Shown here in pieces: positions 12,544-56,240 of a stretch of DNA of 64,000 nucleotides. Made by a program: the position numbers and the translations under genes. The stretch lies in NCBI RefSeq assembly GCF_003334305.1, contig NZ_QOWS01000004.1; one strand, written 5' to 3'. Numbering within the stretch: the first letter of the stretch is position 1; every line of letters begins with the position of its first letter. The stretch comes from Escherichia coli (GTDB lineage Bacteria; Pseudomonadota; Gammaproteobacteria; Enterobacterales; Enterobacteriaceae). The notes below the pieces were generated by a model, which had not been told where the DNA came from, ran no database searches, and saw only the letters and a program-made list of their open reading frames with translations.

Positions 12544-12738
12544 CTTTTGCTCCTTCCTTTGTCCTGCTGACATTCTACGCTATTTGCCTGCGAAACGTGC
12601 GCGGCGCAACTAACGCTTAGTTCACATAAAATAACACACAATGTTAATTTATGTGAATCAGCTCACCATATCGTTATCTTCCAGCGCTTATATTCACAAT
12701 ATCAAACAAAATATCACTTAAATTAACAAGGAGAGCAG

Positions 12739-41507: not shown

Positions 41508-41660
41508 TACTTCTTCGATTCGTAAGCGAGAACTGCCTTAAACTCCATACCACGTTCTCTGATACTCAACTCACACAACGAGTCGCCTACCATCAGCGTG
41601 AATCCCAGTACTGTAAAACACAGCACTATGATTGCCACAAGGGCATATTTTGTCAGCATG
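41508..41660 (-). CDS. hokX: Hok-family type I toxin (50 aa), not present in the ORF track
   Basis: Manual translation of the minus strand from ATG 41660-41658, preceded by GGGAGG: [50 protein letters not shown], stop TAG. Hok/Gef signature; the hokX symbol is from memory of the K-12 cysH-cas3 gap. Confidence 0.85.
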
Positions 41661-41923
41661 TCTTGCCTCCCTGCAAAGAAGAGACTAACATTCGAATTGT
41701 TTGGGTTCGAACGTAAGCCTCAGGTTGATAGAAATATCGCCTGGGGCTTTTGTCCATCTGGAACCTCGCGAATGCTTAACGCCAGACAGCCTCAAGCACC
41801 CGACGCCATTCTATACCTGATAATTCTTCCAGCGGCGTTCACGTTTAAAATCAGGAATACTGCTCGCAAAATAAAAACGCCCCCATCATTTCTGACAGAG
41901 GCGTTTAATTTATCCGGCAATAT

Positions 41924-48540: not shown

Positions 48541-49116
48541 ATGCCCCTCTTACACCTGCTCCGCCAGAATCCGGTGATTGCTGCCGTTAAAGATAATGCC
48601 AGCCTGCAACTGGCAATCGACTCTGAATGCCAGTTTATTTCCGTGTTGTACGGCAATATCTGCACCATCAGTAATATCGTTAAAAAGATTAAGAACGCCG
48701 GGAAATATGCTTTTATTCATGTTGATTTGCTGGAAGGCGCGTCAAATAAAGAAGTCGTGATTCAGTTTTTGAAACTGGTGACCGAGGCGGACGGCATTAT
48801 CAGTACCAAAGCCTCAATGTTGAAAGCGGCAAGAGCGGAAGGTTTTTTCTGTATTCATCGCCTGTTTATTGTTGATTCAATTTCGTTTCACAACATTGAT
48901 AAGCAAGTTGCGCAATCGAATCCGGATTGTATTGAGATCCTGCCAGGCTGTATGCCCAAAGTGCTGGGCTGGGTGACAGAGAAAATCCGCCAACCGCTGA
49001 TTGCCGGTGGGCTGGTGTGCGATGAAGAAGATGCGCGTAATGCGATTAACGCGGGTGTCGTGGCGCTTTCCACCACGAATACCGGGGTCTGGACGTTAGC
49101 GAAAAAATTACTTTGA
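48541..49116 (+). CDS. ygcP: GlpP-like glycerol-3-phosphate-responsive antiterminator family protein
   Basis: 191 aa. Confidence 0.8.
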   Translation: MPLLHLLRQNPVIAAVKDNASLQLAIDSECQFISVLYGNICTISNIVKKIKNAGKYAFIHVDLLEGASNKEVVIQFLKLVTEADGIISTKASMLKAARAEGFFCIHRLFIVDSISFHNIDKQVAQSNPDCIEILPGCMPKVLGWVTEKIRQPLIAGGLVCDEEDARNAINAGVVALSTTNTGVWTLAKKLL

Positions 49117-53832: not shown

Positions 53833-54618
53833 TTAGCGCACTAAATAACCACCATCGACCACTAATAAATGCCCATTGACATAATTTGAAGCCGGACTTG
53901 CGAGGAATACAGCTGCGCCCATTAAATCCTGAGTATCGCCCCAACGGTTTGCCGGAATATGATCAAGAACGCGCTGATTGGTTTCTGGATTACTGCGTGT
54001 CGCCAGCGTAATATCTGTTGCATAATAGCCAGGGGCGATACCATTTACCTGAATATTATATTGACCTAGCTCATCACAATAAGCTTTGGTGAACCCGGCA
54101 AGAGCATGTTTAGTGGCAGAATATGCAGGTGACCATTGTCCACCTAAGTAAGAGAACAATGAACAGATATTAATAATTTTGCCGCTTTTCTGCGGGATCA
54201 TAATTTTTGCAGCTTCATAGCTTAACTCGAATGCGGCGGTCAGGTTCACATCAATCATCGGATCCCAGTCGGCACGACCGAAGTCCAGCACCTTATTCAG
54301 CTTACAAATACCGGCATTGTTTACCAGAATATCAACTGTACCGAAACGCTCACAGCAAGCAGCGATAATCTTCTGCGGCGCGCCTTCTGCGGTGATATCC
54401 ACCTGCATGAAGTCCACCTCAACACCCTGTTTTTCAATCATTTCCTTTGTTTCGCCGTTATCTTTGACGAAACTAGGAATAAAGATATTTGCGCCAGCTT
54501 TGGCCAACGCCATGGCAAATGCCTGGCCTAAACCGCTATTCCCACCGGTAACAATTGCGGTTTTACCTTTCAGTGAGAAAAAATCCATTGAGAACGCATT
54601 GAGAGATTCGATTGACAT
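53833..54618 (-). CDS. ygcW: Short-chain dehydrogenase/reductase
   Basis: Start chosen at MSIESLNAFSMDFFSLKGKTAIVTGGNSGLG (261 aa), giving the TGxxxGxG motif near the N-terminus. Confidence 0.85.
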   Translation of the reverse strand: MSIESLNAFSMDFFSLKGKTAIVTGGNSGLGQAFAMALAKAGANIFIPSFVKDNGETKEMIEKQGVEVDFMQVDITAEGAPQKIIAACCERFGTVDILVNNAGICKLNKVLDFGRADWDPMIDVNLTAAFELSYEAAKIMIPQKSGKIINICSLFSYLGGQWSPAYSATKHALAGFTKAYCDELGQYNIQVNGIAPGYYATDITLATRSNPETNQRVLDHIPANRWGDTQDLMGAAVFLASPASNYVNGHLLVVDGGYLVR

Positions 54619-54742
54619 AGTTAGCTCCAATTTCCGTAAGGCAAAAAAAAAGAAAGGTAACTTCCCCCGCGAGAGGGAAGTTACCTTTCTCATTATCTCT
54701 GGTAACTGGAGATAATTTTTAGCATAACGGCATAACTGCTAA

Positions 54743-54758
54743 TGTGATCGTAATCACA
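54743..54758. promoter_or_regulatory. Perfect consensus CRP-binding site in ygcW-yqcE divergent promoter region
   Basis: TGTGAtcgtaaTCACA, both half-sites exact with 6-bp spacer. Confidence 0.6.
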
Positions 54759-54936
54759 GTGTGATATTCGTATTGTCAAATAGTTTTAAAAAGCAGAAGC
54801 GTGATTACTCTCACACAACACCTCTGCTTTCCATGTTATTTCTTATTGCAATTACTAGAGACCTGAGAAAAGTAATCCACCTGAAAGGGCGGCTTACTTT
54901 TCTCTTTTTTTTGTCTATTACAAATGGGAATACGAT

Positions 54937-56214
54937 ATGCAACACAACTCATATCGCCGTTGGATAACCCTCGCGATAATTAGTTTTAGCGGCGGCGTTA
55001 GTTTCGACCTGGCTTATTTACGTTATATTTATCAAATTCCCATGGCGAAATTTATGGGATTCAGCAATACCGAGATAGGTTTAATAATGAGTACCTTTGG
55101 TATTGCGGCTATTATTCTTTATGCCCCCAGCGGCGTTATTGCCGATAAATTTTCACACCGCAAAATGATTACTTCCGCGATGATCATTACCGGATTACTG
55201 GGTCTGTTAATGGCAACGTATCCACCGCTGTGGGTAATGCTCTGTATTCAGGTCGCCTTTGCGATAACGACGATTTTAATGCTGTGGTCGGTGTCGATTA
55301 AAGCCGCCTCGTTGCTGGGCGATCATAGTGAGCAAGGGAAAATTATGGGCTGGATGGAAGGGCTGCGCGGCGTCGGTGTAATGTCGCTGGCGGTGTTTAC
55401 CATGTGGGTCTTTTCTCGCTTTGCACCGGATGACAGCGCCAGCCTGAAAACAGTCATTATCATCTACAGTGTGGTTTACATCTTGTTGGGGATTCTGTGC
55501 TGGTTTTTTGTTAGCGATAACAACAACCTGCGCAGTGCCAATAACGAAGAAAAACAGTCATTCCAGCTTAGCGACATCCTTGCCGTTTTGCGTATCAGCA
55601 CCACCTGGTATTGCAGCATGGTGATTTTTGGTGTCTTCACAATCTACGCCATTCTGAGTTACTCCACCAACTATCTGACCGAAATGTACGGCATGTCGCT
55701 GGTGGCAGCGAGCTACATGGGGATTGTGATCAACAAAATCTTCCGCGCGCTGTGCGGCCCACTTGGCGGCATTATCACCACCTACAGTAAAGTGAAATCC
55801 CCTACCCGCGTGATCCAAATCCTTTCCGTACTCGGCCTGCTGGCGTTAACTGCCCTGCTCGTCACGAACTCTAACCCGCAATCGGTCGCGATGGGGATTG
55901 GCCTGATTTTACTGCTGGGATTCACCTGTTACGCCTCACGCGGGCTGTACTGGGCCTGCCCTGGCGAAGCGAGAACACCGTCTTACATTATGGGCACCAC
56001 GGTAGGTATTTGTTCGGTGATTGGATTCCTGCCGGATGTCTTCGTTTACCCGATTATCGGCCACTGGCAAGACACCCTGCCCGCAGCAGAAGCCTACCGC
56101 AATATGTGGCTGATGGGAATGGCGGCGCTTGCCATGGTGATTGTCTTTACCTTTTTGCTGTTCCAAAAAATTCGTACTGCTGATAGCGCCCCCGCAATGG
56201 CTAGCAGCAAGTAA
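54937..56214 (+). CDS. yqcE: MFS transporter
   Basis: 425 aa, hydrophobic. Confidence 0.88.
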   Translation: MQHNSYRRWITLAIISFSGGVSFDLAYLRYIYQIPMAKFMGFSNTEIGLIMSTFGIAAIILYAPSGVIADKFSHRKMITSAMIITGLLGLLMATYPPLWVMLCIQVAFAITTILMLWSVSIKAASLLGDHSEQGKIMGWMEGLRGVGVMSLAVFTMWVFSRFAPDDSASLKTVIIIYSVVYILLGILCWFFVSDNNNLRSANNEEKQSFQLSDILAVLRISTTWYCSMVIFGVFTIYAILSYSTNYLTEMYGMSLVAASYMGIVINKIFRALCGPLGGIITTYSKVKSPTRVIQILSVLGLLALTALLVTNSNPQSVAMGIGLILLLGFTCYASRGLYWACPGEARTPSYIMGTTVGICSVIGFLPDVFVYPIIGHWQDTLPAAEAYRNMWLMGMAALAMVIVFTFLLFQKIRTADSAPAMASSK

Positions 56215-56240
56215 GCCAGGAAAATTACAGGAGAAAAATC

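Follow-up and report, generated by a model that had tools for sequence, protein, structure and literature searches.

The spacer between the divergently transcribed genes ygcW and yqcE of E. coli contains a perfect match to the CRP consensus, which raises the question of which of the two operons this site serves and what becomes of the transcripts that begin on either side of it. The locus was analysed within a 64,000-nucleotide stretch of the E. coli chromosome, referred to here as the window, in which ygcW (minus strand, an SDR oxidoreductase) and yqcE (plus strand, an MFS transporter) flank the palindrome, designated CRP site 1. The genes ygcU, ygcS, ygcR and ygcQ lie downstream of ygcW on the same strand. 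The left boundary of the spacer had initially been placed at 54694, next to the start of the longest open reading frame (ATG at 54693). The annotated and conserved start of ygcW is the ATG at 54618, which gives a protein of 261 amino acids, and the true spacer comprises the 318 bp from 54619 to 54936. The 1-kb stretch around CRP site 1 is found in 5078 of 5426 complete genomes with 95–100% identity. The spacer of K-12 differs from that of the window by only four substitutions (at 54728, 54783, 54842 and 54848) and no indels, and is identical to it at both CRP sites described below; published K-12 data therefore carry over to the window. The features of the locus are listed in Table 1.

Table 1. 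Genes, promoter elements and leader RNA elements of the ygc locus (positions in the window)
Feature	Position	Strand	Description
ygcP	48541..49116	+	PF04309 "glycerol-3-phosphate responsive antiterminator", GlpP family
ygcW	53833..54618	-	KduD-like SDR oxidoreductase; first gene after the minus-strand leader
ygcW leader RNA (ecr2774)	54638..54711	-	73 nt; 2898315-2898388 in U00096.2 (Table S5, PMC4681348)
ygcW leader intrinsic terminator	54643..54691	-	19-bp stem (54691..54650), U-run down to 54643
5' box, ygcW leader, CCAGUUACCAGAGA	54696..54709	-	AGUUACC, predicted to pair with GGUAACU in the terminator left arm
Extended -10, ygcW promoter	54716..54724	-	TGcTAAAAA; TGnTA conserved
CRP site 1, TGTGATCGTAATCACA	54743..54758		10/10 match to TGTGA-N6-TCACA; assigned to the ygcW promoter
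CRP site 2, CGTGATTACTCTCACA	54800..54815		9/10 match; assigned to the yqcE promoter; overlooked in the initial annotation
Extended -10, yqcE promoter	54834..54842	+	TGtTATTTC; TATTTA in K-12
5' box, yqcE leader, CAAUUACUAGAGA	54849..54861	+	AUUACU, predicted to pair with AGUAAU in the terminator left arm
yqcE leader RNA (ecr2775)	54850..54913	+	63 nt; 2898527-2898590; northern-confirmed (PMC4681348)
yqcE leader intrinsic terminator	54865..54912	+	Stem-loop 54865-54904, U8 at 54905-54912
yqcE and ygcE	54937..57719	+	MFS transporter and FGGY sugar kinase; downstream of the plus-strand leader

The exact palindrome with a 6-bp spacer, first noticed on inspection of the sequence, is present between ygcW and yqcE as described. 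No other exact TGTGA-N6-TCACA match occurs in the window, where 0.04 are expected from shuffled sequence, and any such match occurs in 4 of 100 shuffled windows. The ygcW/yqcE region ranked second among the CRP targets predicted across species by PhyloScan in 2007 (PMC1794230). The binding of CRP to the palindrome, also proposed at the outset, agrees with published data: CRP ChIP-seq of ETEC H10407 gave a peak at ygcW/yqcE with TGTGATTACGATCACA (PMC4287617), which is the opposite-strand reading of the palindrome, and in a Footprint-seq report on K-12 acTGTGAttacgaTCACAtta at ygcW/yqcE has a Kd of 1.7 nM in vitro (PMC12871828). The palindrome is thus a genuine high-affinity cAMP-CRP site that was already known, having been predicted, footprinted and found by ChIP. 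Taken alone it adds nothing new, and it is the architecture surrounding it that matters.

The initial annotation further held that cAMP-CRP activates one or both operons from this one site. Activation stands for yqcE-ygcE, which a 2021 study places among novel validated Crp-activated operons on the basis of crp-null expression and EMSA (PMC8085971), the EMSA evidence being taken here for the operon as a whole. CRP activation of the ygcW side is predicted from the sequence. The picture of a single site for "one or both operons" is probably inaccurate in its details, with the perfect site serving ygcW and a second site serving yqcE.

This second site, CRP site 2, is located 57 bp from CRP site 1. 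Allowing at most one mismatch, the window contains four CRP-like sites, as compared to 1.65 expected. One-mismatch sites also occur far from the spacer, at 12652–12667 and at 22252–22267; the sequence of the latter, TGTGACCGTGGTCGCA, is listed as an intragenic CRP ChIP-seq target in nlpD of ETEC (PMC4287617).

In galP1-type class II CRP promoters the CRP site is placed near -41.5, in place of the -35 element, and is followed by a TGn extended -10. Both promoters of the spacer have this class II geometry, each with its own CRP site and its own extended -10, and neither has a -35 element, CRP site 1 overlapping the -35 position of the ygcW promoter and CRP site 2 that of the yqcE promoter. The centre of site 1 (54750.5) lies at about -41.5 from the predicted ygcW-side start site at 54709, and that of site 2 (54807.5) at -41.5 to -42.5 from the yqcE-side start site at 54849/54850. 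The 5' ends known from RNA-seq put the two centres at -39.5 (ygcW) and -42.5 (yqcE), not exactly at -41.5.

The same arrangement was found in related genomes. The sample comprised 59 loci with yqcE orthologs across Enterobacterales, of which 56 had analysable spacers; the divergent ygcW/yqcE pair, ygcU, ygcE and ygcP are retained across the loci sampled, and two CRP-like sites are present in all 56 spacers. The distance from CRP site 1 to the ygcW start codon is 131.5–144.5 nt and that from CRP site 2 to the yqcE start codon mostly 128.5–148.5 nt. The distance from site centre to extended -10 (TGnTAnnnn) is 29.5–30.5 nt on the ygcW side in 54 of 56 loci and on the yqcE side in 55 of 56, the class II spacing thus being satisfied by 109 of 112 promoters. 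The gap between the two sites, on the other hand, varies from 36 to 173 bp while the distances of the sites to their own promoters stay fixed, which indicates that each CRP site belongs to its own promoter. Among 55 distinct sequences the half-sites of both sites are more conserved than their N6 spacers and flanks, the flank being the 18 nt that separate each site from its -10: the values are 1.76, 0.48 and 0.34 bits for the half-sites, spacer and flank of site 1, and 1.82, 1.04 and 0.31 bits for those of site 2. Half-site conservation extends from Escherichia to Pantoea and Vibrio. In Vibrio hannami the geometry is the same, with TGTGAGCATTTTCACA centred 41.5 nt before one leader and a weaker site in the equivalent place on the other side. 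Limnobaculum eriocheiris (L034) is an exception to the two-module rule, with a spacer of only 130 bp in which one leader copy is present and CRP-like sites of 8/10 or better are absent. In Klebsiella spallanzanii and Citrobacter youngae (L007 and L009) an insertion of about 127 bp (CGCATCAGCAACTTGAAGTATGAAGGG...) between the yqcE leader terminator and yqcE stretches the spacer to 445–447 bp.

Different promoters have been quoted for this spacer. A genomic SELEX paper describes it as H-NS-associated and gives the promoters TTGACA-16-TGTGAT and TTCTCA-18-GATAAT, neither of which fits the mapped RNA 5' ends. The second of these, at 54687–54716 on the plus strand, was the sole match of a sigma-70 scan and was rejected as the yqcE promoter because of this mismatch with the mapped ends.

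Both promoters lead to an intrinsic terminator before the first gene, and the short terminated RNAs are published. Romero et al. reported ecr2774 and ecr2775 in 2014 as novel small RNAs of the class "simple stem-loop, perhaps REP-like", the abundance of the small RNAs that they detected varying with growth medium (PMC4681348). Their coordinates map to the window without indels and span the predicted start sites through to the ends of the U-runs. Each terminator ends 25 nt ahead of the ATG of its gene. The predicted folding energy is -31 kcal/mol (z = -7.9) for the ygcW terminator and -20.5 kcal/mol (z = -4.7) for the yqcE terminator, and the consensus terminator stem derived from 86 distinct aligned leaders has 15 pairs, 6 of them with compensatory changes. 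Since both promoters feed leader terminators, CRP is probably required, though not enough by itself, for the catabolic genes to be expressed.

A covariance model of the leader, R1, scores the ygcW leader at 82.4 bits and the yqcE leader at 77.6 bits, and the two leaders of E. coli have no 11-mer in common. The model finds two leader copies per Enterobacterales locus, except for the single copy of L. eriocheiris, and nothing further in 1.2 Mb of window and flanking sequence. No third copy, for instance upstream of ygcN, ygcS or ygcP, was found by R1 in the window and its flanks of ±10 kb, where the weaker matches are the reverse strands of the two leader hairpins. No Rfam family covers the leaders in the spacer, in the whole window or in the six distant loci described below; the best match over the spacer has 22.8 bits, as compared to a gathering threshold of 100. 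The Rfam search also identified the sok antitoxin RNA (RF01794, 113 bits) at 41644–41801 on the minus strand of the window, a match that indicates a hok/sok-type toxin-antitoxin locus.

In the alignment both transcripts start with (C)A(G/A)UUAC(C/U)-AGAGA-N3-5-GAGAAA(G/A)GUAA(C/U), which is followed by the terminator stem. This leader element overlaps the 5' arm of the terminator and is a candidate for an alternative structure, in which the 5' box would pair with the left arm of the terminator, although the evidence is weaker than that for the terminator itself. Over the 86 leaders, 91.9% of the cells of the box:left-arm helix are paired, as compared to 16–53% when the partner is slid by 1–3 columns. 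Compensatory changes occur at two pairs (G:C 59 and A:U 22; U:A 55 and C:G 23), these being counts of cells in related sequences, with paralogous leaders among them, and perhaps reflecting few evolutionary events. At the pair that varies between G:C and A:U, the left-arm base is unpaired in the terminator consensus and faces a mismatch in the yqcE terminator of E. coli. The antiterminator hairpins alone, at -6.7 kcal/mol for ygcW and -1.4 kcal/mol for yqcE, are no better than those of shuffled sequence; their weakness suggests that termination is the default and that a factor is needed to hold the alternative structure.

YgcP, encoded in the same cluster, is a candidate for such a factor. It matches PF04309 over the full length of the Pfam model (positions 1–173 of 173, E = 1.6e-62) and has relatives of known structure in the PDB (3kts and 1vkf), while NCBIfam has no model for it. 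No paper was found in the literature on the function of ygcP, on these leaders, or on RNA binding or antitermination by YgcP. The gene is present in all Enterobacterales loci with sufficient flank, except for L043 and for three loci that are cut or partial (L015, L027 and L047). YgcP is much more strongly conserved than the products of the neighbouring operon genes: its sequence identity between E. coli and Citrobacter or Klebsiella is 96–97%, while that of YgcN/YgcO is 64–78% and that of YgcQ/YgcR 58–74%. Serratia, Pantoea and Erwinia lack ygcNO and ygcQR, and their ygcP adjoins the kinase gene.

Homologs of YgcP with 54–63% identity are found in Vibrio, Clostridia, Negativicutes and Bacilli. 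Six such distant loci were analysed, with Vibrio, Clostridium, Sporomusa, Fodinisporobacter and Thalassobacillus among them. In all six the ygcP homolog adjoins genes for an SDR, an FGGY kinase and a FAD-oxidase, with or without ETF and transporters, and R1 finds one or two leaders directly before SDR, kinase, FAD-oxidase or transporter genes, with 36–67 bits and one weaker copy at 22 bits; the co-occurrence of ygcP and leaders is partly a matter of synteny and hence not independent evidence. The helix in these distant taxa takes the variant forms AUUAC:GUAAU or GUUGC:GCGAAC. For all 10 distant leaders, folding of the 5' segment gives the box:left-arm helix and folding of the full-length sequence gives the terminator. 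The leaders of Clostridium sediminicola follow ordinary TTGACA/TTGACT-17-TATACT promoters without a CRP site, which indicates that the RNA element predates its coupling to CRP and does not depend on it. The MFS transporter is replaced in the Vibrio and Firmicutes clusters (L061–L066) by transporters of the BCCT or OpuA type (betaine/choline/carnitine family), and in Sporomusa a second leader copy precedes a BCCT gene. The presence of such transporters beside the distant clusters hints at the class of substrate.

The reading favoured here, and considered likely overall, is that the spacer holds two mirrored modules, each started by CRP and attenuated by a terminator, with read-through brought about by YgcP and an inducer. 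CRP at site 1 would start the leftward ygcW transcript and CRP at site 2 would separately start the rightward yqcE transcript, the default products being the terminated RNAs ecr2774 (73 nt) and ecr2775 (63 nt). YgcP with bound inducer is proposed to act in trans on both leaders, where it would stabilise the weak box:left-arm hairpin and thereby keep the terminator from folding, and read-through would then reach ygcW(-ygcU...) on one side and yqcE-ygcE on the other. A possible inducer, on the model of GlpK, glycerol-3-phosphate and GlpP, is the phosphorylated compound that the YgcE kinase yields. CRP binding, the CRP-dependent expression of yqcE-ygcE and the two short RNAs are published, and to these the present analysis adds the second site, the promoter geometry, the covarying terminators, the alternative pairing and the link to PF04309 across phyla; the roles given to YgcP and the inducer are what we infer from them.

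CRP sites shared between divergent promoters are known, and the perfect palindrome might alone activate both promoters, with site 2 as a bystander. It is the stronger match of the two (10/10), and it is the only one of them in the ChIP-seq table (PMC4287617) and, in the available part of the Footprint-seq report, among the sites with a Kd below 10 nM (PMC12871828). However, site 2 is equally conserved in its half-sites and its distance to the yqcE -10 and leader is fixed in 55 of 56 loci, unlike its gap to site 1, while site 1 lies at about -98.5 from the yqcE start in E. coli, a position that varies among other species; a shared site is thus regarded as improbable. That the palindrome is a chance match without function, which could appeal to the prior of 0.04 per window, has been refuted by published in vivo and in vitro binding data and is at odds with the range of species over which its half-sites are conserved, so that its probability is close to nil.

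The identity of the two transcripts allows for other readings as well. Two discrete short species (63 and 73 nt) that each start from a promoter of their own and end at a terminator of their own, whose abundance depends on the medium and one of which was confirmed by northern blot, are what would be expected of free-standing small RNAs that act in trans under CRP control. Every lineage, Firmicutes among them, nevertheless has the element immediately before a cluster ORF of the same orientation, 25–100 nt ahead of the start codon. This position is not that of a free-standing RNA, and the element is always accompanied by a protein of the antiterminator family. This explanation in place of attenuated leaders is therefore held to be unlikely, although the two roles are not mutually exclusive. 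Neither is there much probability for a scheme that leaves YgcP uninvolved, with the box and its inverted repeats serving as DNA operators of a repressor or with the leader acting as a protein-independent riboswitch. The inverted repeat AGTTACC-N15-GGTAACT, just downstream of the start site, is in a typical position for a repressor, and the lack of significant stability of the antiterminator hairpin alone would be compatible with an operator or a riboswitch. In the loci sampled, however, PF04309 is always conserved and no DNA-binding regulator is; the U-runs, moreover, are polar and coincide with the 3' ends mapped for the RNAs. The two leaders of one genome differ at paired positions (G:C as opposed to A:U) yet remain complementary, and pairing within RNA consequently fits better than a protein that reads both half-sites. 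As for a riboswitch, a ligand-binding aptamer would have to fit into the approximately 30 nt upstream of the terminator, which is very little, and none of the riboswitches in Rfam matches.

The favoured reading of two CRP-started, attenuated modules has parallels in several known systems. The promoters are similar to those of the galP1 type in the position of the CRP centre near -41.5, in the extended -10 and in the catabolite control of a sugar or polyol operon. Unlike these, the ygcW-yqcE spacer contains two back-to-back promoters, each with its own CRP site, and CRP controls here the production of short RNAs and not of mRNA directly.

The closest similarity is to the GlpP system of Bacillus subtilis (glpD, glpFK and glpTQ), the targets of which consist of a promoter, a GlpP site and then a terminator in the 5'-UTR (PMC9604022). 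YgcP is a full-length PF04309 protein and the ygc leaders have the same layout of promoter, short 5' segment and terminator. The glpD and ygc leaders both carry a purine-rich GAGA...GAGA(G/A)A stretch at the base of the terminator left arm, with CCUGAGAUGAGGAGAGACC in the glpD leader (Table S4, PMC9604022) at the position corresponding to CCAGAGAUAAUGAGAAAGG in the ygcW leader; this resemblance is a lead and not a test. Catabolite control is layered on top in both, by CcpA in the Bacillus system and by CRP in the ygc system. The two differ in their genes, with an SDR, an FGGY kinase and a FAD-oxidase with ETF in place of glpK and glpD, in the leader sequence, which in the ygc system is distinct and has the GUUAC:GUAAC alternative helix, and in the Gram-negative hosts; antitermination by YgcP is, moreover, a proposal.

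The BglG/SacY systems, with their RAT and terminator, are likewise built on a protein-stabilised hairpin that overlaps the 5' arm of a terminator and on an inducer that acts besides catabolite control. The ygc system, in contrast, has neither a CAT-PRD protein nor a RAT consensus, and YgcP belongs to an unrelated fold family, PF04309. The listing of ecr2774 and ecr2775 concerns the same transcripts as those described here, but connected them with neither CRP, the genes downstream nor an antiterminator (PMC4681348).

While the CRP site was known, the attenuator/antiterminator layer appears to be an undescribed instance of GlpP-type control. The leaders may be the founding members of an as yet undescribed class of cis-regulatory RNA that crosses phyla and is read by the YgcP subfamily of PF04309, with a 5'-terminal (A/G)UUAC box, an AGAG...GAGAAA loop and a GUAAC-containing terminator arm as its features; the balance tips slightly in favour of this wider claim. 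If true, E. coli and other Gram-negative bacteria would here have their first protein-dependent antitermination switch of the GlpP type, and it would govern a conserved, uncharacterised polyol- or sugar-phosphate pathway made up of an SDR, an FGGY kinase and a FAD-oxidase with ETF. The architecture accounts for two unexplained "small RNAs", ecr2774 and ecr2775, and gives YgcP, an orphan "putative antiterminator", a concrete candidate RNA target. It also provides a compact and portable terminator/antiterminator pair that has been kept from E. coli to Clostridia. The ygc genes are predicted to be silent despite active CRP unless YgcP and its inducer are present, and this silence may partly explain why the function of the cluster is still obscure.
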